A stretch of DNA of 64,000 bases from Candidatus Woesearchaeota archaeon (GCA_030750765.1 JASMHM010000005.1:14256-78255), one strand, 5' to 3'; shown: positions 30,315-60,518, counted from the stretch's first letter. A program made the numbers and translations. The notes: generated by a model from the letters alone, not told the origin.

Positions 30315-30357
30315 GCTTAGAAACGTTTATAAACCGCCGAAGAGCTTTTTAGGGTAT

Positions 30358-30430: not shown

Positions 30431-30448
30431 TTGGAATACAATCTAGAA

Positions 30449-30685
30449 ATGGATAGTGTGGTCAAACGCATTAAGGATGAAAAGGCAAAAACGGTTTGCG
30501 TCCAGCTACCGGACGGTCTGAAGACCCAAGCTGGCGAGATCGCTCAGCAGTTAGAAACATCTACTGACGCCACCATCCTGATCTGGTTGGGTAGTTGTTT
30601 TGGCGCGTGCGATCTTCCCTTAGAGGTGGAAGGTCTAGGCGTGGATCTGCTCGTCCAATGGGGTCACGCTGAATGGAATTTCTAG
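30449..30685 (+). pseudogene. dph2: truncated diphthamide synthase Dph2 fragment (N-terminal ~78 aa only)
   Basis: MDSVVKRIKDEKAKTVCVQLPDGLKTQAGEIAQQLE...ILIWLGSCFGACDLPLEVEGLGVDLLVQWGH matches the Dph2 N-terminus. The frame stops after 78 codons and the next ORF is an unrelated membrane protein. Confidence 0.5.
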
Positions 30686-30999
30686 TGTTATGGGGCTTGC
30701 TTGGCTTTCCTGCCGGCATTCTCGTGGCACAATACGCTAAGGACGAGATGGGTGGAGGCAGAGGCTGGCTTTTCTTGCTTAGAGGGTTACTGTTTGGTAT
30801 CCTCGCATGCGTAGGTTTGTTCGCCTACTTCGGATGGTATGGTCTTTTGCTCATTCCAGTAAGCATGTTCCTGACAGGATGGCTCAACAAGGGCGTGGAC
30901 GTACTCCTTATTTTGGGAATAATCTTTCTGAGAAGTGATCTACTCGTTGCTAGCTTGTTATTCTTGTACGGCTTGCCTGCTGGTTCGTTGTGGGACTAA
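30673..30999 (+). CDS. small membrane protein, hypothetical
   Basis: Three predicted TM helices. Confidence 0.3.
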   Translation: MEFLVLWGLLGFPAGILVAQYAKDEMGGGRGWLFLLRGLLFGILACVGLFAYFGWYGLLLIPVSMFLTGWLNKGVDVLLILGIIFLRSDLLVASLLFLYGLPAGSLWD

Positions 31000-31298
31000 G
31001 CTGCTTTATTACCTTCTACTCTTGCCACTATTTCTTGAACATCTCGGTCTGTGTTGTTCCTTTGTTGATGTATTTCCCTTCGTATATCTGCGATGCGTGC
31101 GCTGCGCTTTCTAATACCTACCTCAAAAGAACGTATCGTATATTGTAGGTCAACTAGGTTTTGAGCATATACTGGATTTCGTTGCAGCTTCGCAAGGGCG
31201 TGGGTCTCTCGCTGTTGCGTGGCGACCTCCTCTTCCAGTTTCTCCTCCAAATCCAGTAAACGCTGTACAATGGTAATTCCTTTCTTGAAGAACGCCAT
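30996..31298 (-). CDS. hypothetical coiled-coil protein
   Basis: ORF only. Confidence 0.3.
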   Translation of the reverse strand: MAFFKKGITIVQRLLDLEEKLEEEVATQQRETHALAKLQRNPVYAQNLVDLQYTIRSFEVGIRKRSARIADIRREIHQQRNNTDRDVQEIVARVEGNKAA

Positions 31299-31373
31299 AC
31301 CCTGCAGGAGTGGTACTCCTTTAAAACGTTATCGTGAGAAACATTTAAATACGTCCACGGCTGGCTAGCGTCC

Positions 31374-31727
31374 ATGGCGATGGTGATGTACGACTGGATC
31401 TATGGTATCTCGCAAATCGCAGCAGTAGTCCTATCGTGTATTGCAGGACTCATAGCTCTTTACATCTTTAAGGATGCACGAAAACAAGAATTGTTAGGCG
31501 CGTGGAAGCCCATGTGCGCAGCTTTGGCCTTGTTTGCCGTCGAGGAGCTTTTGGGTTTGTTTAGAACATTCGACGTCTACGGCACTGCAGCCTTCAGCTG
31601 GGTGCCTGCGGGTATGGTAAGATTTTTGACCACTGCCGCAACGCACATCCTTCCTTTCTTCATACTCATGCTTCTTATCGCAGCTCTCATCAAGCAAATC
31701 AACATTAAGAGGGGGTGGGTGGCGTGA
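31374..31727 (+). CDS. small membrane protein, hypothetical
   Basis: Three to four predicted TM helices. Confidence 0.3.
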   Translation: MAMVMYDWIYGISQIAAVVLSCIAGLIALYIFKDARKQELLGAWKPMCAALALFAVEELLGLFRTFDVYGTAAFSWVPAGMVRFLTTAATHILPFFILMLLIAALIKQINIKRGWVA

Positions 31728-32041
31728 TATTGCAGTCCTTTGCTGAGGTGGGGCCTATCTACAACCTTATCCTGGTTATAGTCGTGATCGTGCTCTTTGT
31801 TAAGCTCTTAAAAGCAGAAGCTTACCAGCACGTGTACACTAAGCCTTGGAAGCTTATCTTTATCGGCGTCATAATTTTCGTGGTAGAAAGCGTCATCACT
31901 GTCTTAAGAAACCTGTCTGCTACAGGTGTTGGCAGGCACATTAATGGCTTTTTCGAGTTAGCCATAGTAATACTGTTCATTCACGCCTTATTATTACAAA
32001 AAGAAGACATGAAGCAGGCGCAGCTGCTTAAGACTGAATAA
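31715..32041 (+). CDS. small membrane protein, hypothetical
   Basis: Three predicted TM helices. Overlaps the previous stop. Confidence 0.3.
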   Translation: MGGVILQSFAEVGPIYNLILVIVVIVLFVKLLKAEAYQHVYTKPWKLIFIGVIIFVVESVITVLRNLSATGVGRHINGFFELAIVILFIHALLLQKEDMKQAQLLKTE

Positions 32042-32051
32042 GACTATAACA

Positions 32052-32059
32052 TTTATATA
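32052..32059 (+). promoter_or_regulatory. TATA box (tttatata) 26 nt upstream of the GTG start of giant protein 1; leaderless arrangement
   Basis: The same box and spacing occur before tRNA-Ile, tRNA-Asn and the giant-3 operon. Confidence 0.5.
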
Positions 32060-32084
32060 CCCGTACGACTGCCGCATTCTCATT

Positions 32085-35000
32085 GTGAAAAAAAGGGGGA
32101 ACCGTTATCACATCTTGATACCGGTAGGTTTAATAGTCGTATTTCTAGCTAGCGCTCTCGCTGTCATAGCCGAGTACCAAGTACCTGCAGGACAGTGCGG
32201 TGTTGAAAGAATGCTTGTCGGTACACGCGTCACTCCGGGTACGGTCATAATCTTGTTCGGAGACGGTACAAGAACGTGCCAATACCCTCGAGACATTCCT
32301 CACCCCTCAGACATCGTTGACACTAACTGCGCGTACGTTGTCAAGGCGGGCGGCAAGAAGTTCTCATGTTACCAAGAGGTGCGAGAGCGCGTACGAACCG
32401 GTTTCCCTATCCACAACGCGTACTGTGGAGACTGTCCATTGTGTTCAGAACCTAGATACGAATGTGAGGGCATGAACGGTGAGATAACGTGCTGTAATGA
32501 GGCAGCACCGTACTGCCTCAATAGTGCAGAGCCAAACTCGCCACCGTCTTGTGCACGATGTCCGATGTACCCAGATCCGACGGGTAGCGACCCCATGTCT
32601 GGTCCGCAGGAAAAACCGGGTATAGCTTGCGGAAATTCAGGATGTTGTGATCCGTACAACGAACGATGCTACCAAGGAACATGCGCTCCTAAGTGCATGC
32701 AAGGAGATCCTATGGCCGGAATGCCTGCAGAGATAGAGTGTGGGGCTAACTGCTGCGAGAGTGACCAAACTTGCAGGAACGGAAAGTGCATCAACCCTAA
32801 CTGGTGTGAAAAACGAGAACAGACCAAATGTGGTGAAACCTGCTGCGAGTGGGATGAGGAATGTAACAACGGAGAATGTGAAGAATTGGGTTGTGCTAGC
32901 GGTCGAAAACACCGTTCTAACTCGTATCACTGTTTTGACGCCCACCGTCAAGGGATCTACAATCCTTTCGCGCTTGACGAAGCGTGTGACGCTAAAAGGA
33001 ATCCTAAACGGTTCTTCATGTCTGGAAGAGCAGATTACTACAATAGGGTCTGCTGCACCGAGAGAAGTTCCATGTGCTGCCAGGAAGGGTATACTGAAAG
33101 CATATGTGCAGAGCTCGGATGGATGGATCCTTCAGATCCTTTCCTAAAACTTCCCAAGGCTAACGATCCTCCACACCTTCAATGGTCTCCTATTATGGGT
33201 GGATCGCAATACGCATCGTGCGCCGGACATTTGGTGAACTTGATGGACCTTCGCGCTAGGTGCTTTCCGGTCTACACAGGTTCATGGGTAGCAATTATGC
33301 ACTCTCAAGGAGAGCGAAGAATGACTACTGATACCCAAGGCAATAAGCGTTCTGCGGTAAGCTGCTGTGTGAAGTATCCCGAACCAGAGGAGGTACCCTT
33401 TGAGTGCCCGCCTGATCCCTTCACCTTCCTGCCAACAGCCAAATGCGGCGAGTTCAATTGCTGCATGGAGGGTGAGAAGTGTGAGAACGGCGAATGTGTC
33501 GTTCCGTTTGAGTGTCCTATTGATCCGATGACGAATGTGAAGATGGCTAAGTGTGGTGAGGATAATTGTTGCATGGCCGGTGACACCTGCGAGAACGGCC
33601 AGTGTGTTCCGCCTGGTGATCGTGATCGTGATGGTGCTCCTCCCGGTCCGCCTAGGTGTCCTCCTGATCCTTACACGGGTAAGCAGCTCGCATGTGGTGG
33701 TACAGGACCTTGTGAAGGCAAGGATCTACTCGGTAGATCACAACACGTTTGTGGGGCAGGTTGCTGTGCTTCTGGACAAAAGTGTTTGGAAGAAGGTTGC
33801 ACCAAGACAAAACAAGAAGTCACCACTACGATAGCTCTAGGCAGTTCCTACACTACGGGTGATTTCCGTGTGTTGTTCGAGAGTGTGGATGCTCAGTACG
33901 CAAATTTCAGAGTGTTCAAACAAGATGAGGATAAGGGCCGTCTCCGTGTGGCTAAGACGCCCCCAGCCGAAGGAAGCAAAGCGGGCGTAGGCATCAGCCT
34001 ACTCAAATTGGAGGAGGGCTCTGCTCCTCAATCCACTCCCAGCACGGTAAGCAATGCTGTGACGGGGTGTCAAACATTAAGCAAACAAAATACGGTATAC
34101 ACGCTGACCCAAGATGTGGTGGCCGATAAAGGTTGCTTCGTGGCCAAGGGACAAGGTTCAACGTTGGATTGTGGGGGGCATACCATACGTGGCAGTGGTC
34201 AGGGTGCAGGCGTGAGAATCGAGACGTTTATGGGTGGATTCACCGTCAAAAACTGCAAAATCACAGAATTCCAGACGGGTATCGAGGTGGTCACGCACAC
34301 GCGAGGTGTGGTTTTGGAAAACAACGAACTTTTCAAAAACACCGAAAATGGGGTAAATTCTGGAGTCCACAACTGGGATGTGCAGTTAACGAACAACAAC
34401 GCGTATGACAACGGCAAGAACGGTTTCCAATTCAACGACAACTCTTACCGCGCCCTGGTAACCAACAACCGAGCAACCAACAATGGTGGGGGAGGTTTTG
34501 TATGGTTACACAACTCATACGATCCGGTATTCAAGAACAATCAAGCTTCAGGACACCCGTGTGACTATCGCTTCGCAAGTACTGTGGCCAAGTTTGGCCG
34601 CACGGTTATCTTCCAAAACAATATTGGGAAAACTTGTGGACTTCCGGGAGCGCCCACTCCTACTCCACTACCATCCAAGACGGTATGCACCGCTGAACAA
34701 CTGAAAATAACCCATGTGGCTATAGGCGTGCGGGATTATTACAGAAAAAGCCCTATTGAGGGTGTCACAGTATACGTCAGCCACAAAGGTAAGGGCTACA
34801 CCGTGACGTCTAAGCGTAACGGTGATGCGGTGGTTGATCTTGGCATTCCCACGTGGTGTGGTATGGTGCAAGGCACACTCAAGTACCTAGTGCAAATCCA
34901 GCACTACGGGTACGCAAATTTCCGACAAACGTACAATCGAGCAGGCGTGTCTGCATTACTGAGACTAGATGATGACAGAATGTTTATGACTGGGGCAAGC

Positions 35001-36437
35001 GTGACAGGTATGAGCATACTAGACACGCCACTTGAAATGAGCGTGCGCTTCACCGACAAGGCAACCGGAGCGCCCCTTCCTGGCATTCCTGTGAGCGTCA
35101 TTGAGGTCGTGCACAACGGTCCTCCTATTAAGACAACGTACCACTCAACTCGTTCGGACGGAAGCGTTAAAGTCTCACAAACGCCATCATCTCTGGGCAC
35201 ATCATTCTGGTTCGTGGCAAAGTCTGCTGACCACACAATCCATCCCCTGCCAATCTACATTACCGGACCCCTCACTACATCACAAGCGCTCTCCAAACCT
35301 GAGAATCCTTCGTTGTGGGATTCGGGTAAGGCCGTCTTCACCACCTACACCAAAAAGGACGATAAGGTTGTCCGTCTCCGGGCTAAGCTCACGTATTCCC
35401 TTGCTGACGGCCAAAAAGTCCAGGCCACGGCCAACAGCCAAGGAGAAACTACCTTCACGTACAAATGGGATACCAAAGGCGAGATCATCAACGGAAAGAA
35501 ACTTACCTCCAACAGAATTCGAACAGCTGCAGCCATAGGTAGGATAAAAATAGAGATGTCTGGTTACAAGACTAGAGATCTGGGTTCGGGTATGTGGTTG
35601 GGCAAGATAAGCAAGATCAACCTGAACATGGAGCCAACGTCAGGGTCAGGAGGTACCGTTAGTCCTCCACCGCCTCCCGTGCCTCCGCCTACACCTCCTC
35701 CGGTGCCACCGCCTAGTCCTACACCTCCTCCCACACCTCCTCCCGTACCGTCACCTACTCCGCCTCCCACACCTCCACAGCCGCCAGGACCGGATGCCAA
35801 GAAATTGCTAGCCACGATCAAGATAACCACAGAAACGGAAGAGTGCATACAAACAACCTGCGCAGAGCTCTGTCCTGCAAACCACATCAGCTGCGGAAAT
35901 AGCTGCTGCGGACCAGAACAAAAATGCAGTGATGGCGCATGTGTCGTCAAGGAGGATTGCGGTGGCGTACTCTGTCCTTCTGGAGAGGTTTGCATCAACG
36001 ATATTTGCGCGTTGGCGTGCGACGAGAAAGAAACCCGGTGTGGTAATGCCTGCTGCAACCGAGGACAAGAATGCTTCCAAGGAAGCTGTCTCAACAAGCC
36101 CTGTCCGACACTCAAGGGCGACAGACCAACAACTGCCTGTGGGGGAACATGCTGTGGTCCTAATGAGTATTGTGAATCCGAAAGATGCCAGCCAATGTGT
36201 GATGGACAAGGAGCAGGCACTCCCGTGCCGCCAACCCCTCCTATCCCTCCTACGCCTCCCGTTCCACCCACGCCGCTTACAGGCCAAGAGCATTGTGGAG
36301 TTATAGAAGGACCTATACCTGGACCTAACGGAAACGAGGTCTGTCAAGGGAAGAACTTACAATGTAAAGAAATTGAATATGTCCTTCTTGGTGATACTTC
36401 CTCACCCTCCTTAGCAAGTTGTGACAAAACCTTTTAG
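32085..36437 (+). CDS. giant secreted cysteine-rich surface protein 1 (1450 aa): signal/TM, Cys-rich modules, parallel beta-helix, Ig-like domain, Pro-rich linker, Cys-rich modules
   Basis: GTG start. N-terminal hydrophobic helix ILIPVGLIVVFLASALAVIA. Recurrent C-G-x-x-C-C-x(5-7)-C-x-x-G-x-C modules. PbH1-like repeats (CGGHTIRGSGQGAGVRIE...NNELFKNTENGVNSG...NNNAYDNGKNGFQFNDNS...NNRATNNGGGGF) at ~34050-34640. Domain SFWFVAKSADHTIHPLP...TTYTKKDDKVVRL...KWDTKGEIINGKKLTS...GMWLGK is shared with giant 2. PPPPVPPPTPPP linker at ~35660-35790. No C-terminal anchor. Ends at a single TAG that is in frame with giant 2. Confidence 0.7.
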   Translation: MKKRGNRYHILIPVGLIVVFLASALAVIAEYQVPAGQCGVERMLVGTRVTPGTVIILFGDGTRTCQYPRDIPHPSDIVDTNCAYVVKAGGKKFSCYQEVRERVRTGFPIHNAYCGDCPLCSEPRYECEGMNGEITCCNEAAPYCLNSAEPNSPPSCARCPMYPDPTGSDPMSGPQEKPGIACGNSGCCDPYNERCYQGTCAPKCMQGDPMAGMPAEIECGANCCESDQTCRNGKCINPNWCEKREQTKCGETCCEWDEECNNGECEELGCASGRKHRSNSYHCFDAHRQGIYNPFALDEACDAKRNPKRFFMSGRADYYNRVCCTERSSMCCQEGYTESICAELGWMDPSDPFLKLPKANDPPHLQWSPIMGGSQYASCAGHLVNLMDLRARCFPVYTGSWVAIMHSQGERRMTTDTQGNKRSAVSCCVKYPEPEEVPFECPPDPFTFLPTAKCGEFNCCMEGEKCENGECVVPFECPIDPMTNVKMAKCGEDNCCMAGDTCENGQCVPPGDRDRDGAPPGPPRCPPDPYTGKQLACGGTGPCEGKDLLGRSQHVCGAGCCASGQKCLEEGCTKTKQEVTTTIALGSSYTTGDFRVLFESVDAQYANFRVFKQDEDKGRLRVAKTPPAEGSKAGVGISLLKLEEGSAPQSTPSTVSNAVTGCQTLSKQNTVYTLTQDVVADKGCFVAKGQGSTLDCGGHTIRGSGQGAGVRIETFMGGFTVKNCKITEFQTGIEVVTHTRGVVLENNELFKNTENGVNSGVHNWDVQLTNNNAYDNGKNGFQFNDNSYRALVTNNRATNNGGGGFVWLHNSYDPVFKNNQASGHPCDYRFASTVAKFGRTVIFQNNIGKTCGLPGAPTPTPLPSKTVCTAEQLKITHVAIGVRDYYRKSPIEGVTVYVSHKGKGYTVTSKRNGDAVVDLGIPTWCGMVQGTLKYLVQIQHYGYANFRQTYNRAGVSALLRLDDDRMFMTGASVTGMSILDTPLEMSVRFTDKATGAPLPGIPVSVIEVVHNGPPIKTTYHSTRSDGSVKVSQTPSSLGTSFWFVAKSADHTIHPLPIYITGPLTTSQALSKPENPSLWDSGKAVFTTYTKKDDKVVRLRAKLTYSLADGQKVQATANSQGETTFTYKWDTKGEIINGKKLTSNRIRTAAAIGRIKIEMSGYKTRDLGSGMWLGKISKINLNMEPTSGSGGTVSPPPPPVPPPTPPPVPPPSPTPPPTPPPVPSPTPPPTPPQPPGPDAKKLLATIKITTETEECIQTTCAELCPANHISCGNSCCGPEQKCSDGACVVKEDCGGVLCPSGEVCINDICALACDEKETRCGNACCNRGQECFQGSCLNKPCPTLKGDRPTTACGGTCCGPNEYCESERCQPMCDGQGAGTPVPPTPPIPPTPPVPPTPLTGQEHCGVIEGPIPGPNGNEVCQGKNLQCKEIEYVLLGDTSSPSLASCDKTF

Positions 36438-36512
36438 GCGCACACCGGGCAGGGTAAGTTTAGAGCGGCATGCTGCACTACGCGAGATCTATCTTGTAAG
36501 AATGTTAGAGGT

Positions 36513-48300: not shown

Positions 48301-48550
48301 TTTCGTTTGGTCTCATCAAGCAATGTATCATCTTTGACTTGCACTTCCATTCCTTGAGGAATTCCTTGACCTTCTTTTCCTGTTTTGGCCTTACGAGTAG
48401 AACGGTCTTTGCAAGTTGTACTATGCCGCATTCTTTTATGATGCCTGGTTGGCCTCCTCTTCCTTTGAGAGCATAGAAGAATCTGACTTTATCTTTGTAC
48501 ACCAAGTGTTTGGTGTCATATGTAACAATAATCATAGGGGTGAGCTTCAT
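48278..48550 (-). CDS. small conserved basic protein, paralog A (family of three; function unknown)
   Basis: MKLTPMIIVTYDTKHLVYKDKVRFFYALKGRGGQPGIIKEC...FLKEWKC. The ATG overlaps the stop of paralog B. The DNA is clearly a tandem duplicate of paralog B. Confidence 0.5.
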   Translation of the reverse strand: MKLTPMIIVTYDTKHLVYKDKVRFFYALKGRGGQPGIIKECGIVQLAKTVLLVRPKQEKKVKEFLKEWKCKSKMIHCLMRPNEINASKRS

Positions 48551-48894
48551 TTCTTGCCACCTCCAAACTTCTTTTTCAATTCGCGAAGTCTCTCAGCGTG
48601 GGGGTGTTCTTCCTTTGGCGCCGTTCGTATGGAGTCCTGGCCGCATTCTTCTGGTCGCATCAGGCAACGGAGCATTTTGGAATTGCACTCCCATTCCTTG
48701 AGGAAGGCTTGAACTCTCTTTTCATGTTCTGGTGCCACGAGCAACACGGTTTTGGCAAGCTGTGTGATGTTACATTCTTTGATTATGCCTGGCTGGCCCC
48801 CTCTACCTTTAAGCGCGTAGAAGAATCTGACTTTGTCTTTGTACTCTAAGTGCTTGGTGTCGTAGGTGAAGATGTTCATGGGGGCGCGCTTCAT
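48547..48894 (-). CDS. small conserved basic protein, paralog B, with a C-terminal tail (RLRELKKKFGGGKK) matching the giant-3 C-terminus
   Basis: MKRAPMNIFTYDTKHLEYKDKVRFFYALKGRGGQPGIIKEC...FLKEWEC plus the tail. Its ATG overlaps the giant-3 stop. The 25-bp junction sequence cttcatttcttgccacctccaaact is identical at 48545-48569 and 48889-48913. Confidence 0.5.
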   Translation of the reverse strand: MKRAPMNIFTYDTKHLEYKDKVRFFYALKGRGGQPGIIKECNITQLAKTVLLVAPEHEKRVQAFLKEWECNSKMLRCLMRPEECGQDSIRTAPKEEHPHAERLRELKKKFGGGKK

Positions 48895-51800: not shown

Positions 51801-54800
51801 GGCAGGCGCGGGTGCTGCGGGTGCATCTGGTGCTTCCTCGGCTGCAGCGGCTTTCTTGGCAGCATTGCTAGATCTGGAGGGAATTATTTTTCCCGTACCT
51901 GGATTGGTCTCTTCCCCGTAGCTGGTAAAGCCGGTGACGTTGAAGATGTGTCTCTGGTTGGAGAAGCTCACCTCTGTGCACGCCGAGCTTGGGCAGGTCT
52001 CAAAGACGCCATCATCTTCAGGATCTCTCGTCGCTCGAGGGGACAAGAATAACGTGTTGAAGAAGGTGACTTGTGATTCTACATTTAGTCCGGATTCTTG
52101 ACTGCTGTTTGCTAGGGCGTAATCTTCAGCAAAGACTAAGAAGCTAGAAAGGTTGGTGATGTTGTTTGCTATTCTTCCGAATTCTATGCCGCTCGTGTTC
52201 AGCTGTCCAAGTTTGAACGTGCTGTCTTTCATGATGTTGCTGTGGTTGTCGTGATATCGGTTGAGGTAGACAAACTTTGCTCCGGCACTGGTTCCGTTGA
52301 AGGTTGCGTTTCTTACAAAGATGAATTCTGCTTGTACTTGGGTGGATCCATTCCTGCCGTTGTAGGTTGCTCCGTCCATGATGTAGGTGCTGTTGATGAT
52401 TATGTTTCCACCTGCACCCCTTACTGTTGTTCCTGGGAGCATGGTGGCGTTGCTGAGGTTGAGATTTGCATCTCTAGGACTCCACTCCCAGTTTTGTATG
52501 CCGTACAGATGGTTGTGGGCGATGTCGTATCTTCCCCCAGTTCCAATCTCTCCCCCATTTGTCCCGTTGACAAGTAGGTGACTATCATTGATCAGGCTGG
52601 TGTTGTACTTGATCATGATCCTTCCTCCACCTCCACCTTCTCCAGTTCCTCCGCGTCCTCGCGCAAGGAAGTATCCTTGTCCGTCGATGACGTCTGTAAC
52701 TATGTTGATGCTTCCTCCGCTTCCTCCGCCTCCGTCTTGGTCACCAAAGCCGTCTACAGACAGGTTTCCAGAGATGTTCATGAGCCCTGCCTCGATGAAC
52801 ACTAGCCCTCCGCCTAGCGAACCGTTAACCTCTGGAGCTGCACCTCCGCCTCCGCCCCCACTTCCTAGCTCTACGGGATTGAAGGCGCTGCCGTACGTTG
52901 ATCCGTACGATTCTGTGCTTATTTCGGGGTTCTCTGTGGGTAGCCATGTGGGTGCTCCGGTTCCTCCGTGACTGCCGCCGCTTCCGTTGCCTTCTGTTGC
53001 GCCGGTGGGTCCTGCGCCCGGTCCTGTCTCTGCTCCAAACCCTTTGGTGGTGATGGTGCTTCCGACGTCCATGGTCATGTTGGTGGTGCTGATGTTGAGC
53101 CTGGTGACGTTAGCGATCTGTGACATGTCCATGAGTATGTGTTGGGCGGTGATGCTTAGGTTGGAGAGATTTTGGCTTGGGTTTGGGATGATGCTTGCGT
53201 TGTACAAGATCAGGTTGGTGACGTTCAGCACGAGACTGCTGTTGCTTTTTGTTACTGCCTGGGTGACGTTGATGGTGGCGTAATTCCAAATGCTGAGATC
53301 GGTGAGCACCCATCTCCAGCCGCCTCGGATTTGGACGCTGCTGGCGTTCAACTCAAAGAAGGCGATGGTGCCTATCCCTCCTCCACTCTTTCCAGACACG
53401 TCCGCATTCTCGATGGATAGGGTGCTGAAATTGGTTCTTACTGTGATCATGCCTCCTGAGCTGTTGTCGCCTCCTTTTACGTCAAAATTTCCATTGCCTG
53501 TGAGATTGTTTACGATTACGTTGATGGTGCCTCCGCTTCCTCCTGCTCCGGATTCTGTTCCTTGATAATTTTCGCCCTTAGCGCTGACATTTCCGCTAAT
53601 ATTCACTTGGTTGCCGCGGATGAACACCACGCCTCCTCCTGCTCCTGCTCCTCCTTGGTCCATTTTATCCCCGCCTCCACTTCCTGGTTGGGTAGGGTTG
53701 AAGGGGCGGTCATAAGGACTGCCTCCTGGCATGGTCCCGCCAGCAGTTTCGACAAATTCAGCACCCTTGCCGCCGTGACCTGCCCCTGAGCCTCCTTCGG
53801 TGGCTGATGTTCCTGCTCCAGGTCCTTTCTCTGCGATAAATCCTGCTTTATCTGCGGAAATAAACGAGTTTGCCGTGAGCGTGAAGTTTGGGCTGGTGAT
53901 GTTCATTACGCTTGTTCTGTTGATGGTGGAGTCCATGATGAGGCTGGTGCCTGCGCTTAGTGTGAAGTTTCCGATGAAGCTATCGTTGGTGTTGCCTTCG
54001 ATGGTGCTGTTTATTAGGTGGAAGACGCTGGCTGAGATGTTTAAGGTGTCATTTGCTTTTGTGCGGGCGTTGCTAACGTTCAACAAGGTGTAGTTCCAGC
54101 TGGCTTGTTTGACCCATCGCCATCCTTGCCTGATGTTGAGGCTGTTGTCGTCCAGGTCGAACATGGCGGCAGTGCCATGTTCTGCGCCACCATCTCCCTG
54201 CACCTCAAGATTTGTGATGGGTATCTGGGTGAAATTGTACTGTACAAGGATCATGCCGCCGCTGCTAGCGTTGGCTCCTTTTGCTGTGAGGAATCCGCCG
54301 CCGGTGAGGTTGCCTACCAAAATATTAATGGAGCCGCCTGCCCCTCCTGTGTTCTTAGTACCTTCTGGTGGGGGGAGTACTCCATCAACGCTGATGTTGC
54401 CCGACAGGTTAGAAAAGGAAGAACGGATGAACACCACGCCCCCTCCTCGCCCGCCTAGGAAACTTGCACTTTCGCTGGCGCCTCCGCTTCCTGCCTCTTC
54501 AGGGTTTAGAGGATTGTCATAGGGTTGATTGGGAACGCTCTCTCCTGGCATGCCCTTTCCACCGTGGCCGGCCCCGCTGCCTGCTAAGGTCGCTCCTGCT
54601 ACACCAAAGGCAGGTCCAGAATCTGAGGCAAAGCCGGCACCATCAGAAAGAATGACGGACCCTGCCGTGAGGGTGAAATTAGGACTGGTGATGTTGAACC
54701 TGCTCGTTCTGTTGATGACTGAGTTCATGATGAGGCTGGTGCCTGCGCTTAGTGTGAAGTTGCCGATGAAGGACACGTTGTTTTTTGGTTCGATGATGCT

Positions 54801-57800
54801 GTCTACAAGGTGGAAGACGCTGGCTGAGATGTTTAAGGTGTCATTTGCTTTTGTGCGGGCGTTGCTAACGTTCAACAAGGTGTAGTTCCAGCTGGCTTGT
54901 TTGACCCATCGCCATCCTTGTCGGATGTTTAGGCTGTTGTCATCCTCGTCATACATTGCTGTCGTGCCTTGTTCTCCGCCAGAGCTGCCGCTGGTGTTGA
55001 GCTTCTCTATAGAGATGGTGGTGGTGTTGTAACCAACGAAAATCATGCCACCGCCGCTTCTGGCTCCAGTACCTGTCGCGTCGAACGTTCCATTACCTAC
55101 AAGTTCGTTTACGAGGATGTTGATGCTGCCTCCGCTTCCCCCTCCTGCTAAGCCACTTCCCGCAACGCCTTGGACGCTGATGTTGCCGGAGAGGTTAGCG
55201 AAGTTGGATCGTATAATGACCACGCCTCCACCGAAACCTCCACGAGGTCCGCCGACTCCCTCAGAACCGCCGCCGCTGCCATGCTCAACAGGGTTTGTGG
55301 GGTCGTCATACACTTGGCCCTCGGGCATGGGAGGATCTGCTTCGGGGGGGCCGCCTAGTCCTCCGTGTCCTGCCCCGGCGCCGTCTCCGCTTCCCGAAGC
55401 CATGCCTGCTCCTGGGCCTAGGTCGTTAGAAAACCCTGTGCCGTCTGCGATGATGATCGAGCCAATAGTGAAGGTGAAGTTAGGGCTGGTGATGTTGAGT
55501 CTGCTTGTTTTATTGATGACAGCATCTACCAAGAATGAGGTTCCTGCGCCAATCGTAATGTTGCCGATGATGCTTTCATTGTTCTTGGGCTCGATGCTTG
55601 CGTTTGTCAAGTGGAAGACGCTGGCGGTGATGTTGAGTGAGTCGTTCGCTAACGTGATAGCATTTGTGACGTTCAACAAAGTGAAGTTCCAGGCCGCGAG
55701 CTTGACCCATCGCCAGCTCTGTCTGATGTTGAGGCTGTTGCTGTCCATGTCAAACATGGCTGAGGTACCGGGATTGCTTCCGCTGGCTCCGTCAACAAAC
55801 ATATTCTCAATGCTTGATGTGGTGGTGTTGTAACTAAGAAGGATCATACCTCCCCCGCCTCCTGAAGATCCAATACCTCGTGACAGGTACTTTCCGTCTC
55901 CGTGTAGAGTGTTCGCGAGTACGTTGATGGTGCCTCCGCTTCCTCCTCCATGGGGGCCGTCGCTAGCCCCTCCGTCTGTGCTGATGTTGCCTGACATGTT
56001 CAGCATGTCGGCTCTGATAAAGACTGCTCCGCCTCCTCTCTGTCCGCCCTTGCCTCCTCCACTTCCTAACTCGATAGGATTCAAGGGATCATCGTACACT
56101 TCGCTGCGAGGCAAGGGAGGAGTATCTTCGGGTACGGCTCTGCCTGCTCCACCGTGTCCTCCTGGACCGCCAAAGCTTCCACCATCTTGTCCTCCTCCAG
56201 GTCCGTCTGAGGAGTCGAATCCAGAGGCGTCCAGAATGATGAAGGATCCGCTGTCAATGCTGACGTTTACCGAGGTCACGTTGAATCTTGTGAAGTTTCC
56301 GATGGTCGAGCTTAGTATGAACATTTCGGTGGTGTTCACGGTCAGGTTCTTGTCCAAATCCAGGCTTACGTTTCCGGCAAGAAGCAAAGTGCTGTTTTGC
56401 ATGCGGAAGAACGCTCCAGAGATGTTGATACTGACGTTATACGTGGCCACTACATTTGTCAGGTTCATGGAAAACGCGTATACTGGTGTCTCGTCAAACG
56501 TCCACGACTGTCGCATGTTGAACACGCCGGTGCCTAGGTCCACAAATGCTAGCGAGCCAGGGAAGGCATTTCCTCTGCTGCTCACAGAAGAGCGAGAGGG
56601 GTCAAGAGTGCTGCTGTTTGCCCTAACCATGATGCGTCCGCCGCCTCCAGAAGCATTTTCATTACTTGAGGCTCCTTCTGCCTCGAGACGTCCGTTTCCT
56701 ACGAGAGTGTCTACGAGGATGTTGATGCTGCCTCCGCTGCCTCCGCCAGCTGCATCATTATCAGTAAAGACTGTTCCCCCTGACACGGTTATGTTTCCGC
56801 TCATGTTGAGCCTGCTTCCTCTTATGAACACTGCGCCTCCTCCTCGGGCAGCTCCAGAGTTACCGTCATCGCCCCTTCCGCCCTGGCTTCCAGGGTTTAC
56901 AGGGTTGCGTGCGCTGTCATAGCTCAGACCTGCTAGTGTGGGAGGTGTTCCGGGAGAGTCTAACCCTTTGCCTCCGTGTCCTGCGCCAGAACCGTAGGGG
57001 TGACCTCCGTCGTCGTCCGCCCCTGCTCCTGGACCGTCGTAGGCAGTGTCGCTTGCGTTAATGACTGAGCTCTCATCAATGGTTGTGTTTGTACTGGTGA
57101 TGTTTACTATGAGAAGGCTTGTTAGTATGCTGTTTTTGATCTCCATGTTGGTCGCGTTCATGGTGAGGTTGGTCGTGGTGTTTTCTGGGGCACCCTCAAT
57201 GGATGCGTTTACCATGCTGAACATCCCAACGCTAAAGTTGAGTGTGGCGTTCATGGTGATGTTAACGCCAATAATGCGAATGCTGCCCATGTTTTGCAAG
57301 GCTGCAGAGGGGAATCTGAAATCCTCAATGAGATAGACTGTGTCGTCGTCCACGTCCAAAATGATTAGCGAACCTGGATCTGCGTCGGCCTCGCCTGGTG
57401 AAACGTCGTAATTGTCGCGGGTGAGACTGGAGTGGTTGTACTCAATGCGCATTCTTCCTCCGCCGCCTGCACCTCCGCCTCCGCCTCCGCCTCTGGCAGT
57501 GATGTTTCCTGTACCATTGATGTGGTTGGCGATGATGTGGATGGTGCCGCCTCCGCCTCCGCCGCCTATTCCTGAGCCAAAGCTCTGGATGCCTGAGATA
57601 CCGTCTGCACTTATCGTACCGTTAACGATGAGCACGTCTGCCTCGAGCTTGAGTATGCCTCCTCCTGCTCCTCCAATGCCGTCATCCGTAGTGCCTGCAT
57701 GCCCTCCTCCACTTCCTGCCTGGAATGGGTTGACAGGATCTCCATACGCTACTCCTCCGTCGGAGGGAGGGTCGTTGTTATTCGCTCCGCCTCCACCGCC

Positions 57801-60152
57801 GTGGCTTCCTCCAGGGCCATGCTTTTCATCATCGCTAGAGCGGTCCACTTGGCTGATGCCTTCAAGAACTTGGTAGCCGGTACCATTCAACAGGATGTCT
57901 CCTTCTACAGTGATGTTATCTGCCTTGATGAGTATGCTTTCGTTGCCTATGCTGGTGGCGTTGATGATCATGATGGCTCCTGCACTAATGTTGATGTTGC
58001 TACAGGTTTTGTTGCTCGTTACGTACTCAGTACCGGTGATGACCCAGTTGCCTGTTGAGTCTGGACAGCTCGCAAACTTGGTGACGTTAAACTCGATGTA
58101 GACGCTGTGGTTCTTGTTGTTGGAGGTGTCGTTAGCTAGTATTGTGAGGTTGTACTCTCCCGAGGTGTCTGTGGCTAGCGTAACAAACGTGTTGTTGAAC
58201 TCGGTGCCAGAACGATTGAACAATTGTATCAGTGTGTTGCTGCCGTTGGGGATGGTGATGTTGGCAAACACAGTGTCTGTTATGTTGTCATCTGTAACAT
58301 TAACATCGATGGTGGTGGTGTTGCCTCTGGCGAACTGTTTGGGCGTGATGTTGAGCTTGGTTACTGCGGGTACTTTGATGTCTGAAGGGAGGTTGATCTC
58401 GTACTGGATGATCAGCACAGGATAGTTGGTAATGTTGTCATCATTCTGCATCACGATCTCTGCCGTGGAGTTGGTCTCGTTATTTTCCGGTGTTCTTATG
58501 CCTAGCGTGAACACGTCGCTCCCTGTTAGCGCGCTCTCGATGTCGGCTGAGGCATTAAGGCCTAGTTGCTGGGTGGTCTTCCAGTAGCAGCCAGAAGACA
58601 TAAGACAGTTGTCCTTCTCTTCATGGCCTGCCACGTTACACCCGTCCGCGTGGTCCAAGCACACGGAGCCATTCCATTGACAGCCGGTGTTCGTACCGCA
58701 AGAGCCTTCATCTCCCTGCTCTGCACAATTATCTCGGAAGCCTCGGCACAGGGTTCTGCTGCTGGTGAAGTTGGTGTGGTCCTCAAAGTAGACGTTACTG
58801 GTGCCATTAGTGCCGTTGTAGAGGTCGTTGTTGCCTTGCGAGTTGTCGGTGTAGTCTGCCGCGGGCTTGGAGATTCCGGCAATCGTGATGTTGTCCTCGC
58901 CAGTGCTCTTTGTTGCTGTAAGCGTTAGATTAACCAATGTGATGTTGGCGTTGTCAGGAATTATGGTGGTGTTGAAGTCTAGGAAGATGCGATAGCCTGC
59001 ATGCTTGGTGTCGCCCCAAGAGCACGTAAATTGGGCAGAGCAATCTCCTTCGCCGGAGGTTATATTGCTGCACGGTTCAGCTGTGCCCTCGCAGCTGTCT
59101 CCGTCCCAGGTGCATCCTCGCTGGGTGTCGCAGGAAGGCTCATCTGCGATCTCGCCGCAGGTCATAACTTCACCTGAGCAACCTGGATGGGTTTTGTTTC
59201 CAAGGGAAGCGTTTGAGGATGTGGTATCTCGGGTGTGTGCTGTCACGTTCGTGCTGGTCTCGTTTCTAAGGGTGTGCCCGTCTAGCGTGAGATTGCCTCC
59301 GTCTAGGGAGATCGCGGTTATGGAGACCACTTGTATGAGGAGGTCTCCTTGTTGTTGGACTGGCGAGACAGAGAAGCCCACTGCCTCTCCTGCAGACCTG
59401 AACAAGGTGAAGTGGTCAACGGTAAAACTTACGTCTCCGCTGTCGTACTGGATGTTGGTACAGCTAGGGCTTGTCGTGTCATCACACGTTCCCCAAGTTG
59501 TTCCATCATCGCTGTATTCGATCTTGCTGCCGATGGCGCTGTTGATGGTGAGTGTTGCTGTTTTGTTGAGCTGGACACACTTGGCAGTGTCTAGTCCGAT
59601 AAGGTTATCCTCCACAACAAGACATTCGTGGATGTTGGTGTAGTTTTGCTTGCCACCAAAGTCGATCTTTCCAAGATCGCCGCTAACGCTGCCGTCTTCT
59701 TGTATTTGCATTCCTTTGGGTATGAGTAAGAAATTGTAGTTGAGGATTGCAGCATCATCCTCTTCGTCCGCTGCGTCCTCTAGCGTGGTTGTGTCTTCAA
59801 TAAGACTGGGAAGGTCGGTAAGGTCGGGTAGTGCTTCAACAACTGGCCCTTGGAACTCGTGACTAAGCACCTGTTGAGAGATATTGGAGCCCACGAGTAA
59901 GGATACTGTGAGCTCCACCTCTCTAACATCTGCGTGGTTTTTGGTTAGTGTTAGCAATTCTCCATCAACTTCTGTCGTCACATTCTCGTGTGTCTGGACG
60001 AGGAAAGAGTCAGCCGGGCCTAGTCGCTCCGTGAGGTTTAGCGTGGTTGTTGGTAGATCAAGACCGAATAGTCCGGTGATCGTGCCTCCCCAAAGAGCTA
60101 AACTAAGCCCAGCAATGACGATGAATACGGCGAGCAGCTTCCTTACTTCCAT
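48891..60152 (-). CDS. giant surface protein 3 (3753 aa): signal peptide, NxT/S-sequon-rich beta-solenoid-like region, Cys clusters, ~6 tandem ~265-aa Gly-rich modules, Ala/Pro linker, lipase-type alpha/beta-hydrolase domain, two TM segments, basic repeat cytoplasmic tail
   Basis: N-terminal signal MEVRKLLAVFIVIAGLSLALWGG. Repeated modules (...NISASVFHL...GGAGGSINILV...NSLNIRQGWRWVKQASWNYTLLNV...) at ~52100-57400. AAKKAAAAEEAPDAPAAPAPAPAP linker. Hydrolase core ~50600-50960 (ALILIHGF oxyanion region, nucleophile elbow AHSMGG, LVGTPNDGSP). TM helices at ~49824-49901 and ~49959-50066. Tail with repeated L(K/R)KxFGTxY units ending KRLRDLKKKFGGGKK. Stop is TGA. Confidence 0.7.
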   Translation of the reverse strand: MEVRKLLAVFIVIAGLSLALWGGTITGLFGLDLPTTTLNLTERLGPADSFLVQTHENVTTEVDGELLTLTKNHADVREVELTVSLLVGSNISQQVLSHEFQGPVVEALPDLTDLPSLIEDTTTLEDAADEEDDAAILNYNFLLIPKGMQIQEDGSVSGDLGKIDFGGKQNYTNIHECLVVEDNLIGLDTAKCVQLNKTATLTINSAIGSKIEYSDDGTTWGTCDDTTSPSCTNIQYDSGDVSFTVDHFTLFRSAGEAVGFSVSPVQQQGDLLIQVVSITAISLDGGNLTLDGHTLRNETSTNVTAHTRDTTSSNASLGNKTHPGCSGEVMTCGEIADEPSCDTQRGCTWDGDSCEGTAEPCSNITSGEGDCSAQFTCSWGDTKHAGYRIFLDFNTTIIPDNANITLVNLTLTATKSTGEDNITIAGISKPAADYTDNSQGNNDLYNGTNGTSNVYFEDHTNFTSSRTLCRGFRDNCAEQGDEGSCGTNTGCQWNGSVCLDHADGCNVAGHEEKDNCLMSSGCYWKTTQQLGLNASADIESALTGSDVFTLGIRTPENNETNSTAEIVMQNDDNITNYPVLIIQYEINLPSDIKVPAVTKLNITPKQFARGNTTTIDVNVTDDNITDTVFANITIPNGSNTLIQLFNRSGTEFNNTFVTLATDTSGEYNLTILANDTSNNKNHSVYIEFNVTKFASCPDSTGNWVITGTEYVTSNKTCSNINISAGAIMIINATSIGNESILIKADNITVEGDILLNGTGYQVLEGISQVDRSSDDEKHGPGGSHGGGGGANNNDPPSDGGVAYGDPVNPFQAGSGGGHAGTTDDGIGGAGGGILKLEADVLIVNGTISADGISGIQSFGSGIGGGGGGGTIHIIANHINGTGNITARGGGGGGGAGGGGRMRIEYNHSSLTRDNYDVSPGEADADPGSLIILDVDDDTVYLIEDFRFPSAALQNMGSIRIIGVNITMNATLNFSVGMFSMVNASIEGAPENTTTNLTMNATNMEIKNSILTSLLIVNITSTNTTIDESSVINASDTAYDGPGAGADDDGGHPYGSGAGHGGKGLDSPGTPPTLAGLSYDSARNPVNPGSQGGRGDDGNSGAARGGGAVFIRGSRLNMSGNITVSGGTVFTDNDAAGGGSGGSINILVDTLVGNGRLEAEGASSNENASGGGGRIMVRANSSTLDPSRSSVSSRGNAFPGSLAFVDLGTGVFNMRQSWTFDETPVYAFSMNLTNVVATYNVSINISGAFFRMQNSTLLLAGNVSLDLDKNLTVNTTEMFILSSTIGNFTRFNVTSVNVSIDSGSFIILDASGFDSSDGPGGGQDGGSFGGPGGHGGAGRAVPEDTPPLPRSEVYDDPLNPIELGSGGGKGGQRGGGAVFIRADMLNMSGNISTDGGASDGPHGGGSGGTINVLANTLHGDGKYLSRGIGSSGGGGGMILLSYNTTTSSIENMFVDGASGSNPGTSAMFDMDSNSLNIRQSWRWVKLAAWNFTLLNVTNAITLANDSLNITASVFHLTNASIEPKNNESIIGNITIGAGTSFLVDAVINKTSRLNITSPNFTFTIGSIIIADGTGFSNDLGPGAGMASGSGDGAGAGHGGLGGPPEADPPMPEGQVYDDPTNPVEHGSGGGSEGVGGPRGGFGGGVVIIRSNFANLSGNISVQGVAGSGLAGGGSGGSINILVNELVGNGTFDATGTGARSGGGMIFVGYNTTTISIEKLNTSGSSGGEQGTTAMYDEDDNSLNIRQGWRWVKQASWNYTLLNVSNARTKANDTLNISASVFHLVDSIIEPKNNVSFIGNFTLSAGTSLIMNSVINRTSRFNITSPNFTLTAGSVILSDGAGFASDSGPAFGVAGATLAGSGAGHGGKGMPGESVPNQPYDNPLNPEEAGSGGASESASFLGGRGGGVVFIRSSFSNLSGNISVDGVLPPPEGTKNTGGAGGSINILVGNLTGGGFLTAKGANASSGGMILVQYNFTQIPITNLEVQGDGGAEHGTAAMFDLDDNSLNIRQGWRWVKQASWNYTLLNVSNARTKANDTLNISASVFHLINSTIEGNTNDSFIGNFTLSAGTSLIMDSTINRTSVMNITSPNFTLTANSFISADKAGFIAEKGPGAGTSATEGGSGAGHGGKGAEFVETAGGTMPGGSPYDRPFNPTQPGSGGGDKMDQGGAGAGGGVVFIRGNQVNISGNVSAKGENYQGTESGAGGSGGTINVIVNNLTGNGNFDVKGGDNSSGGMITVRTNFSTLSIENADVSGKSGGGIGTIAFFELNASSVQIRGGWRWVLTDLSIWNYATINVTQAVTKSNSSLVLNVTNLILYNASIIPNPSQNLSNLSITAQHILMDMSQIANVTRLNISTTNMTMDVGSTITTKGFGAETGPGAGPTGATEGNGSGGSHGGTGAPTWLPTENPEISTESYGSTYGSAFNPVELGSGGGGGGAAPEVNGSLGGGLVFIEAGLMNISGNLSVDGFGDQDGGGGSGGSINIVTDVIDGQGYFLARGRGGTGEGGGGGRIMIKYNTSLINDSHLLVNGTNGGEIGTGGRYDIAHNHLYGIQNWEWSPRDANLNLSNATMLPGTTVRGAGGNIIINSTYIMDGATYNGRNGSTQVQAEFIFVRNATFNGTSAGAKFVYLNRYHDNHSNIMKDSTFKLGQLNTSGIEFGRIANNITNLSSFLVFAEDYALANSSQESGLNVESQVTFFNTLFLSPRATRDPEDDGVFETCPSSACTEVSFSNQRHIFNVTGFTSYGEETNPGTGKIIPSRSSNAAKKAAAAEEAPDAPAAPAPAPAPAAAPAAKAAGVSTATSQRRSNIGKLFISQEDIEAEEVACAQGEAGSQVKIKKASTPPVPTGFSVLADPFAMDCAGDNVVLTLSVSENYENITTLKCNNEGCEFVGVEKPTEFECGGVSYSELVLSEYSKEGLEIDRKRVLTKQATITPENPRVQVEGYTIEFKDVTTPFQFNMKPHALSLPQVDKHIALLVDPIEIIQNSGKPQTVTISVKNPRTNNVLEGEFPAFRKQNGDMQSIVTNYDGTTVKGSFETNTTSVLGFYGIRCDSCDDVTMSKEYDGGSRQALILIHGFMSSPATWLPMIEEFRLTKQPQQVYSIAYPSTLEFKEISRQTRLLIEGTLREFDTVDIVAHSMGGLITQQVLKDMTNKEFEEKIRKLILVGTPNDGSPAIDIYKKVQKKIGAKKNIVPFLAASPTVVSSLSQGVQLPRMPGKEYVVLAGNRPFTIETAIFTVESDQIGEFFKEPNDGVVSVSSAQNVGGQPVENKCEDYFEMELDHGQLIDHSVPRKVIARLVAQQVEGKVTLGYNQYIRLNINNCQPGYTYAVVGQEIDEDTVADPLNCKCGNGVCGNGEDKVNCPSDCLIVERRAKNLLPIVIYGFLIAMIALILWGEVKKHKYGKALPRIFRLGKVAIALLLGATIGLHHYLYQALIPAYVLLALIVVSVLVEFFRHLRLPHIKVPHPLRDWKPHRRKPVMVPALRRLQDVFLKVSLPKLKPIRLPSRTQIPSPPPKWDMPKVKYKPFVIRPQPTPQQQPKTSGKRLQEMLGKRHPSAWTKPKETEKVPTPLHQLKKQFGTSYARYLEKTPKAQPHALPVQKKPRAPVHKPRYGFDKLKEQFRGRVEERLQYKKPEPTPIVPAPKVVRKPYEHKSHMLDNLKKSFDTNYKTKTSYVRPAPSTTLEPTPVEKRQRTHNESLEKLRGSFGTNYQRMVKPKPTIKHKPKEKPKQEEHEYKHAKRLRDLKKKFGGGKK

Positions 60153-60394
60153 ACTGCCCTCCTATCGTAGGAACATTTCCATTCCTTGAGAAATGCGTCT
60201 ACGGTGTTAGCGTGTTGTTTGGGTACTAAGAAGGCGGTGCGACCTAACTGGTCTATTTTGCAGTCTTTGATGATGCCACTTTTCCCATCTCTTCCTTTGA
60301 TGGCGTAGTAAAATCTAACCTTGTCAGAGTATTTTAGATGGGTGGTAGAATAGGTAAAAAGTGCAAATTCAGTGTAACTACTACCAGCAACCAC
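60143..60394 (-). CDS. small conserved basic protein, paralog C (first gene of the giant-3 operon)
   Basis: ...FALFTYSTTHLKYSDKVRFYYAIKGRDGKSGIIKDC...FLKEWKC is homologous to paralogs A and B. Putative GTG start at 60394-60392, 26 nt downstream of the TATA. Overlaps the giant-3 start by 10 nt. Confidence 0.45.
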   Translation of the reverse strand: MVAGSSYTEFALFTYSTTHLKYSDKVRFYYAIKGRDGKSGIIKDCKIDQLGRTAFLVPKQHANTVDAFLKEWKCSYDRRAVWK

Positions 60395-60419
60395 GCTGTT
60401 AAATAATTTAACAGTTTGG

Positions 60420-60427
60420 TATATAAA
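60420..60427 (-). promoter_or_regulatory. TATA box (tttatata on the minus strand) for the paralog-C/giant-3/B/A operon
   Basis: Forward tatataaa. The GTG lies 26 nt downstream on the minus strand, the same architecture as giant 1 and the tRNAs. Confidence 0.5.
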
Positions 60428-60429
60428 GC

Positions 60430-60450
60430 TTTCGACGTTTCTCGTCGAAA
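60430..60450 (-). promoter_or_regulatory. perfect 8-bp inverted repeat hairpin (tttcgacg-tttct-cgtcgaaa) abutting the TATA box; terminator of the upstream gene and/or operator
   Basis: Seen directly. On the minus strand the hairpin is followed by gc and then the T-rich TATA. It lies 70 nt downstream of the Rpp21 stop. Confidence 0.4.
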
Positions 60451-60518
60451 ACCCTACAATCACTCGCGTGGGTCAAAACTATCAAAAAACTCGATTCTTT
60501 AAATTACTACCGTACCAC

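Follow-up and report, generated by a model that had tools for sequence, protein, structure and literature searches.

Introduction

In DPANN archaea, LamG proteins and giant surface proteins are proposed to mediate host contact (PMC10266531), and surface proteins diversify within Nanoarchaeota populations (PMC6142677). The closest described systems are the SPEARE proteins of Nanohaloarchaeota and multi-LamG surface proteins (PMC10266531, which cites Hamm et al. 2019). Here, we analyze a locus with comparable proteins on a 64,000-nucleotide (nt) stretch of DNA from a Candidatus Woesearchaeota archaeon (GCA_030750765.1, JASMHM010000005.1:14256-78255), which we refer to as the window. A preliminary description had placed at 30431-60463 an accessory island with three giant surface proteins of a small-genome archaeon. 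The organism is a DPANN archaeon, as that guess implied, and the locus encodes two convergent giant proteins of a marine Woesearchaeota archaeon, not three, both predicted to be membrane-anchored surface proteins. We refer to them as giant A and giant B, and estimate a probability of roughly 0.6 that they constitute a native, vertically inherited cell-surface locus.

Like the SPEARE and LamG giants, these proteins span thousands of residues, with an N-terminal signal, an ectodomain with Ig-like and ConA/LamG folds and a membrane anchor; they are likewise encoded in a genome-reduced DPANN genome, and contact with a partner cell is proposed for both. The differences are no less clear. There is no detectable sequence similarity, and one of the two giants is cysteine-extreme and avoids N-glycosylation sequons (N-x-S/T), whereas the other is sequon-extreme. 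An FG-GAP propeller and a juxtamembrane lipase-like domain set the locus apart as well, and it is positionally conserved across lineages, whereas the SPEARE and LamG giants are organism-specific. Because giant and LamG surface proteins, as well as the diversification of surface proteins, have already been reported in DPANN archaea, the locus is a further form of these known giants and not a new class.

Two other groups of proteins invite comparison. Archaeal S-layer glycoproteins with a C-terminal membrane anchor include the haloarchaeal S-layer glycoprotein and the tetrabrachion of Staphylothermus, which has a bound protease. Giant B resembles them in being sequon-heavy and C-terminally anchored, in its presence in every strain, in being under purifying selection and in carrying an enzyme on a stalk; unlike them, it is several times larger and contains no detected S-layer domain family. 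Giant bacterial repeat adhesins of the RTX, Bap and LapA types are secreted by type I secretion systems and contain Ca-binding Ig repeats. Giant A shares with these the combination of extender and ligand-binding modules and a distal variation at the strain level, but it has an archaeal Sec signal, a transmembrane (TM) anchor and Cys-knot repeats.

Two convergent giant genes

In an open reading frame (ORF) scan, three giant ORFs fill 26,985 of the 30,033 nt (90%) between 30431 and 60463, just as they had been described. G1 (32085-36437; 1450 amino acids, aa) and G2 (36513-47882; 3789 aa) lie on the plus strand and G3 (48891-60152; 3753 aa) on the minus strand, which confirms that two large units converge. 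As a count of genes, however, three is too many. G1 and G2 share one frame and are separated only by a single TAG codon (36435-36437, plus strand) and 25 sense codons, and a Cys-containing module continues straight across this TAG. Two assemblies of the same species, L007 and L008, have TCG (Ser) at this position, and their frames stay open for 2,470 codons, to the contig end, and for 2,370 codons, respectively; a third assembly, L046, carries a gene call of 5,387 aa. Since the sequence of L007 matches the window at 99-100% identity from about 36000 on, the TAG represents a single C-to-A change, be it a nonsense change or a consensus error. G1 and G2 are therefore one gene, giant A (32085-47882, plus strand), with about 5,265 codons and 308 cysteines, and G3 is giant B.

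A 3,789-aa product called in a further assembly (L042) hints that the TAG allele recurs. In a hydropathy scan, G1 has an N-terminal hydrophobic segment and no anchor, and G2 has a C-terminal TM segment and no signal; with giant A cut by a nonsense codon, this strain is without the anchored adhesin, or else the base call is wrong. Pyrrolysine or a reassigned TAG was considered and rejected. The codon terminates 10 of 42 ORFs, so that it is an ordinary stop here and recoding is not indicated, and its counterpart in other strains is the Ser codon.

Giant A

Giant A owes its character to cysteine, which makes up 6.8% of G1 (99 residues) and 5.5% of G2 (209 residues), compared with 0.89% in 13 flanking genes. 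The regular spacing noticed at the outset is evident, with distances that peak at 4-7 residues, 27 CC pairs and 18 copies of a CGxxCC..C..GxC motif. The dense sequons that had also been ascribed to G1 and G2 are, on the other hand, found in G3: G1 has 0, where shuffled sequences predict 9.3 ± 2.8, and G2 has 11, where 19.3 are expected, so that both are depleted. Most of these 11 sit in two short stretches of (V/I)xNxTQ-like heptad repeats, at G2 residues ~2040-2090 (~42630-42780) and ~3640-3670 (~47430-47520), with one just outside the TM anchor. The clusters may represent glycosylated parts of a stalk, in a protein that is otherwise free of sequons.

Several modules within this cysteine-rich frame can be assigned, all on the plus strand. 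A right-handed beta-helix of the PbH1 type (34137-34544; G1 residues 685-820) matches Pfam Beta_helix with 48.8 bits (cut-off 25.9, E 8e-13) and NosD with 35.2 bits (cut-off 23.6, E 1e-8); the NCBIfam model para_beta_helix stays just below its cut-off (19.0 against 19.45), and nothing else was gained from NCBIfam. An FG-GAP (integrin-alpha-like) beta-propeller region (39090-40712; G2 residues ~860-1400) matches Pfam FG-GAP_2 over 5 repeats with 142.4 bits (cut-off 23, E 4.7e-42). Both had been predicted correctly. With its five clear FG-GAP_2 repeats, giant A is similar to integrin alpha-type FG-GAP proteins (PF14312), but unlike in integrin alpha, the propeller accounts for only about 10% of the protein; neither an integrin beta partner nor an I-domain was found for it.

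Four further modules had been described as ConA/LamG jelly rolls. Module 1 (37869-38450) aligns with modules 2-4 (44346-44897, 44931-45482 and 45510-46070), and their jelly-roll beta-sandwich superposes on known members of the ConA-like lectin/glucanase superfamily (legume-lectin-like, CBM66, DUF1080/3mep-like, GH16), at an identity of only 9-13%. While the ConA-like fold can thus be upheld, the Laminin_G_3 hidden Markov model (HMM) is not matched (best score 12.7 bits against a cut-off of 27.6, E 0.14). Only 20 relatives were found among 1.84 billion representative proteins. The proposed EGF-like repeats had to be given up, since no EGF family of Pfam matches any segment at E <= 0.5 and the Cys repeats, read directly, hold 4 Cys per 20-40 aa instead of the six-Cys EGF pattern. 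Ig-like, transthyretin-like and CarboxypepD_reg-like modules yield weak Pfam scores only. At its C-terminus (47649-47879), giant A has a TM anchor (47649-47705) and a 58-aa cytoplasmic tail, which is conserved in the nearest related species, ARS49 (see below).

A whole-database search with the fused G1+G2 sequence returned only 3 weak FG-GAP matches and missed the conspecific copies, too; the best matches belong to giant bacterial proteins of the FG-GAP/cadherin/Calx-beta kind. Neither the G1 nor the G2 product was found by exact look-up in protein databases. Giant A is missing from both large protein collections, even though its DNA is present in many assemblies, likely because it is always either interrupted at a contig end or classed as a pseudogene.

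Giant B

Giant B contains 148 sequons, where shuffled sequences lead one to expect 45.6 ± 6.0 (z = +17), and 38 Cys. The sequons occur at 5.2 per 100 aa across the first 2,800 residues, which begin with a hydrophobic signal/anchor segment. Within this region lie seven tandem Gly-rich and sequon-rich repeats of ~266 aa (52251-57872, minus strand; residues 761-2634) with the consensus GxGHGG...NP..GSGGG...GGSGGSINI. Because their N-x-T rungs are periodic, the repeats would form a beta-solenoid; hhalign detects no relation to the beta-helix of G1.

The lipase domain that had been attributed to the giants finds support in this protein, as a predicted juxtamembrane alpha/beta-hydrolase similar to PGAP1 and class 2 lipases (50283-50942, minus strand). 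The isolated segment 3040-3380 scores above the cut-offs for PGAP1 (26.6 bits, cut-off 24.3) and LCAT (22.3, cut-off 21) and below those for Lipase_2 (19.8, cut-off 20.3) and DUF7379 (30.3, cut-off 33), and all of these families fall below their cut-offs when the whole protein is scanned. The domain aligns with a putative lipase of the PDB (7x2p, E 0.0037) and has in common with PGAP1 and class 2 lipases (PF07819, PF01674) an HG oxyanion motif, an AHSMGG nucleophile elbow (50730-50747) and a GTPxDGS motif. A candidate Asp (NDG, 50388-50408) and a candidate His (DHG, 50298-50318) are motif-level guesses. In contrast to these lipases, the domain forms part of a predicted surface protein of 3,753 aa, right before the TM anchor.

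This anchor comprises three TM segments (49794-50027; residues 3376-3453), followed by a 300-aa tail (together 48894-50027, minus strand). The tail is Lys/Arg/Pro-rich and of low complexity, with four L..LK..F[GD] motifs; C-terminal TM anchors are hence present in G2 and G3 as proposed, whereas a structured tail is not what we find in G3. A phmmer comparison of each giant with the PDB sequences gave marginal matches only, and a database search with the C-terminal 1,100 aa of G3, which was swamped by low-complexity words, returned no matches.

Conservation between species and strains

Within the genome collection, Ca. Woesearchaeota ARS49 (L051) is the closest species, with a PGK that is 83% identical. 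Compared with ARS49, G3 has an identity of 82% at the amino acid level, with proportions of nonsynonymous (pN) and synonymous (pS) differences of 0.105 and 0.51. The respective values are 66%, 0.22 and 0.72 for G2, and 83%, 0.10 and 0.73 for PGK. The hallmark residues of both giants are retained at these distances, namely 185 of the 187 aligned Cys in G2 (98.9%) and 131 of the 134 sequons in G3 (97.8%). Within the species, G3 is 99.9-100% identical in at least 10 assemblies. The pS of G3, at 0.38-0.63 per 300-codon block, is below that of pgk and G2, which could result from codon constraint, from gene conversion among the repeats or from later exchange between species.

These numbers bear on a reading in which the locus is purely structural, with G3 as the main S-layer-like envelope glycoprotein without any partner recognition and giant A as a decaying pseudogene under relaxed constraint. 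It would account for a G3 that evolves about as slowly as PGK (pN 0.105 and 0.100) and is invariant among strains, and for a giant A that has a premature stop here and evolves about twice as fast. We nevertheless regard it as rather unlikely. At least three other assemblies have an intact giant A, and a pN far below pS together with the conservation of its Cys is incompatible with long-term decay; moreover, variability is limited to one zone, while the other ~9 kb of giant A are 99.9-100% identical among strains.

A polymorphic zone in giant A

Identity between the window and other assemblies collapses at 33572, the beginning of a mosaic zone with at least three haplotypes (33572-38700, plus strand), which overlaps the beta-helix, Ig-like and Cys modules as well as an internal 2,067-nt duplication, a plausible recombination substrate. 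The 1.43-kb allele of the window has no DNA similarity to a 2.18-kb alternative that is 100% identical in four other assemblies and that, in L007, encodes a divergent beta-helix and extra Cys modules. Further mosaic segments reach to about 36000 in comparison with L007 and to about 37026 in comparison with L008. The region 38278-58550 and the flanks are 99.9-100% identical across at least 10 assemblies. As the anchor of giant A is C-terminal, the mosaic zone corresponds to its membrane-distal part.

The variants differ by cassettes and indels, and the substitution spectrum between them is symmetric, which is not what a diversity-generating retroelement would produce. Such an element was rejected, given the lack of an adenine bias; no exhaustive scan of the window for a reverse transcriptase was made. 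We also looked for the junction patterns in metagenomes, with no match in a first scan and one chance match in a second (L055), which has no similarity to the window.

The internal repeats of the zone raise the question of whether the TAG split and the alternative cassettes arose by mis-assembly across them. The zone contains Pro/Thr-coding low-complexity repeats in addition to the duplication, many contigs stop at its edges (33560-33572 or 38693-38703), and no other record contains the G1 or G2 product in its exact form. An artefact nonetheless seems improbable to us: four independent assemblies have the common alternative allele with 100% identity over 2.3 kb, the frame is open in every allele of giant A, the giant ORFs are reproduced in more than 10 assemblies, and the product in L042 hints at a recurring TAG allele.

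A probably native locus rather than an acquired island

In the preliminary description, the region was a horizontally acquired island of about 30 kb beside a tRNA gene, with three giant adhesins as a host-interaction apparatus. Its position is indeed as stated there, between tRNA-Asn (GTT; 30357-30431, plus strand; ARAGORN, Rfam 72.5 bits) with a truncated dph2 on the left and the core genes Rpp21 and pgk on the right (Pfam). The bulk GC content of 0.50-0.55, compared with 0.46-0.48 in the flanks, and deviating tetranucleotide profiles could be taken as further signs of foreign origin, as could the lack of detectable giant A homologues outside close relatives.

The composition, however, proves to be ordinary once codon positions are considered separately. 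GC at the third codon position is 0.49-0.57 in the giants, inside the flank range of 0.47-0.62, and the synonymous codon usage of giants and flanks correlates at 0.80-0.94, the same level as among the flank genes themselves. The GC excess lies in the second codon position (0.47-0.51 against 0.36) and therefore reflects amino acid composition. No second copy of the tRNA 3' end, as expected for an att-like repeat, exists in the window at up to 3 mismatches, and tRNA-targeted integration was rejected on these grounds; no integrase or other mobility domain appeared in Pfam scans of the scanned island ORFs.

The layout of ARS49 is equally informative. There, pgk, a coiled-coil gene, Rpp21 and a small protein precede a 3,742-aa G3 homologue, which is followed by one small paralog, a 142-aa membrane protein and, in convergent orientation, a homologue of G2 that contains FG-GAP and measures at least 3,619 aa. 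Both giants and the small genes are thus syntenic between the two species, and we found no presence/absence polymorphism, as the locus occurs in all conspecific assemblies and in ARS49, whose contig ends inside giant A. The arrangement on the pgk/Rpp21 side even recurs in lineages whose PGK is just 39-46% identical. With a conserved syntenic position and ordinary composition, essentially the outcome that the preliminary description itself had named as refuting its island, and with two giants instead of three, the acquisition of an accessory island appears very unlikely.

A small ferredoxin-fold family next to giant genes

The giants are accompanied by small genes of one family, all on the minus strand here. 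Paralog C (60143-60394; 83 aa from a GTG start) precedes G3 and overlaps its start by 10 nt, while paralog B (48547-48894; 115 aa) and paralog A (48278-48550; 90 aa, ferredoxin-fold) follow it. Paralog A is the only small copy downstream of G3 in ARS49, where paralog B is absent. Tail sharing between giants and small proteins, as previously suggested, holds for G3 and paralog B, the C-terminus of which copies the G3 tail; it results from a 344-nt tandem duplication (48302-48601 and 48646-48945, 77% identity) that ARS49 also lacks. No significant similarity exists between the tails of G2 and the 144-aa membrane protein encoded next to it (E 1.7).

The family has 311+ members with 50-66% identity, nearly all from Woesearchaeota or Nanoarchaeia, and cluster members carry the name Woesearchaeota at NCBI. 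They are ~83-92 aa long, sometimes tandem at ~165 aa, and contain the invariant motif DKVRFYYALKGRDGKSG. For paralog C, AF2 predicts a ferredoxin-like fold with confidence (pLDDT 94), with no specific structural relative, and the family has no match in the searched copies of Pfam-A, NCBIfam and PHROGs.

We sampled seven neighbourhoods of such small genes, picked only for long contigs. In five of the seven (the window, ARS49, L056/L057, L060 and L061), the small gene lies directly before an ORF of 2,966-3,958 aa, and in four of these five, the block of pgk, coiled-coil gene, Rpp21, small gene and giant is kept, at PGK identities down to 39-46%; the order of pgk, coiled-coil gene and Rpp21 is repeated in ARS49, L056/L057 and L060. 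In the giants of L056/L057, L060 and L061, the properties of G3 recur: each has a signal peptide, 5.1-5.9 sequons per 100 aa and a Cys content of about 1%, although their sequences have almost nothing in common with that of G3. Three of these four loci are neighbours of pgk and Rpp21. G3 hence looks like the local member of a fast-evolving but positionally conserved class of giant envelope glycoproteins. As for the remaining two neighbourhoods, L039 has a 1,353-aa sequon-rich protein just upstream of the small gene, and in L038 the small gene lies among housekeeping genes.

One might go further and regard the small ferredoxin-fold protein as a dedicated partner of giant N-glycosylated envelope genes, acting as an expression, processivity or export factor; together they would make up a hitherto undescribed module of two genes, often fixed at pgk/Rpp21. 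The cassettes and the nonsense allele of giant A might, in parallel, provide a population-level switching of partner specificity and of the on/off state in a marine DPANN symbiont. We offer this extended scenario as a speculation, and as one that is more probably wrong than right.

That the locus is an apparatus for secretion or for effectors, comparable to the nanohaloarchaeal SPEARE giants, which have been proposed as secretion devices (PMC10266531), or a polymorphic toxin with variable toxin and immunity modules, is highly improbable: it does combine giant membrane-anchored proteins in a DPANN archaeon with small genes after each giant and one polymorphic region, but Pfam and NCBIfam scans of all segments and neighbouring ORFs revealed no VirB4/TraG-like ATPase (the SPEARE hallmark), protease or nuclease domain, the variable part is N-proximal with binding-type modules and not a C-terminal toxin, and the small genes behind the giants are members of a widespread family of cytoplasmic ferredoxin-fold proteins, which is also encountered in places without giants.

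Genomic surroundings and promoters

To the left of the giants, directly after the tRNA gene, lies a remnant of dph2 (30437-30679, plus strand), which comprises the first ~82 codons and is the same in all conspecific assemblies. Full-length woesearchaeotal Dph2 aligns with it over residues 2-83 only (tblastn), and Pfam Diphthamide_syn is covered at profile positions 1-56 of 302. The rest of the gene was not found anywhere in the window, including the far side of the giant block, so that the idea of a remainder beyond this block was rejected. The truncation could mean that diphthamide synthesis was lost or that the gene was relocated. Next to the remnant follow four small ORFs of 100-117 aa (30673-32041), three of them hydrophobic and one coiled-coil-like, which are kept in conspecific contigs, match no Pfam family and are possible members of the giant system. 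About 14 kb upstream of the giants, a type IV prepilin-like peptidase (Peptidase_A24; 17448-18293) suggests archaeal type IV pili or an archaellum as a further element of the organism's surface.

The plus-strand unit is closed by the two-TM membrane protein of 144 aa (47866-48300), which is called in 10 assemblies and has its 142-aa counterpart in ARS49. As this gene ends at 48300 and paralog A at 48278, the convergent units overlap by 23 nt at their 3' ends. The right-hand neighbours are Rpp21 (60519-60764, minus strand), a 395-aa coiled-coil protein (60783-61970, plus strand) and pgk (61957-63069, minus strand). The exact PGK and neighbouring proteins are present in many marine metagenome assemblies and metagenome-assembled genomes.

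Both units were said to have an identical promoter architecture. A TATA box with the sequence TTTATATA does lie 33 nt before the GTG start of G1 (32052-32059, plus strand; leaderless-type), and another one before the start of paralog C (60420-60427, minus strand). These boxes, at -29 to -33, are merely generic archaeal promoters with a short or absent leader; like boxes precede Rpp21 and several housekeeping genes, and a locus-specific promoter was rejected for this reason.

Discussion

An N-terminal signal/anchor, C-terminal TM anchors, and lectin-fold, propeller, beta-helix and lipase-like modules together bear out the original view of these giants as surface proteins, within a locus that we consider native and vertically inherited. 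Giant B would then be a heavily N-glycosylated envelope or coat protein. Behind a signal peptide, it would expose ~2,800 sequon-rich residues, including the seven Gly-rich repeats, and carry a lipase-like esterase just outside its three-TM anchor, followed by a basic cytoplasmic tail. It would belong to a positional class of giant sequon-rich proteins: in many Woesearchaeota, a small ferredoxin-fold gene is immediately followed by the gene for such a giant, in most cases beside Rpp21 and pgk. Giant A would be a disulfide-stabilised, sequon-avoiding adhesin of ~5,265 aa, anchored by its C-terminal TM segment and built from Cys-knot repeats, a beta-helix, Ig-like modules, four ConA-fold lectin modules and an FG-GAP propeller. 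Its membrane-distal third would exist as alternative mosaic cassettes in the population, which may tune what the protein binds.

A number of points weigh against this picture. While gene structure, domains, conservation and polymorphism are direct observations, surface display, glycosylation, disulfide bonding, the binding of partner cells or glycans and esterase activity are deduced from the genes. Adhesion of giant A to a partner cell, and not to polysaccharide or particles, is guesswork. The signal and TM calls come from a simple hydropathy scan and not from a dedicated predictor. Neither most of the Cys-rich modules of giant A nor the seven repeats of G3 could be assigned a fold, the latter having no match in Pfam, PDB (by profile), PHROGs or IMG/VR. 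The G3 hydrolase passes the Pfam thresholds narrowly, and the Asp and His of its putative triad are read from motifs. Low-complexity words hampered the searches, so that the apparent lack of giant A homologues is weak evidence, and the TAG could be an assembly or consensus error. Finally, the dph2 remnant beside tRNA-Asn does indicate an old rearrangement at the left boundary, the only such sign at this locus.

Marine Woesearchaeota are uncultured, and this locus supplies concrete, testable candidates for work on their partners and envelopes. G3, as a conserved and probably heavily glycosylated giant, may be the envelope protein of the lineage. Its putative built-in esterase is of particular interest because DPANN archaea are considered dependent on other organisms for lipids. 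The polymorphism of the distal third of giant A within a population is the signature expected of a specificity determinant. The conservation of Cys in one giant and of sequons in the other, at 66-82% identity, provides unusually clean comparative evidence for two ways in which one cell may stabilise its extracellular giants. The small gene that recurs before giant genes offers a clue as to how such proteins are expressed or exported in archaea. As annotation splits such giants or drops them as pseudogenes, they are systematically under-represented in protein databases.

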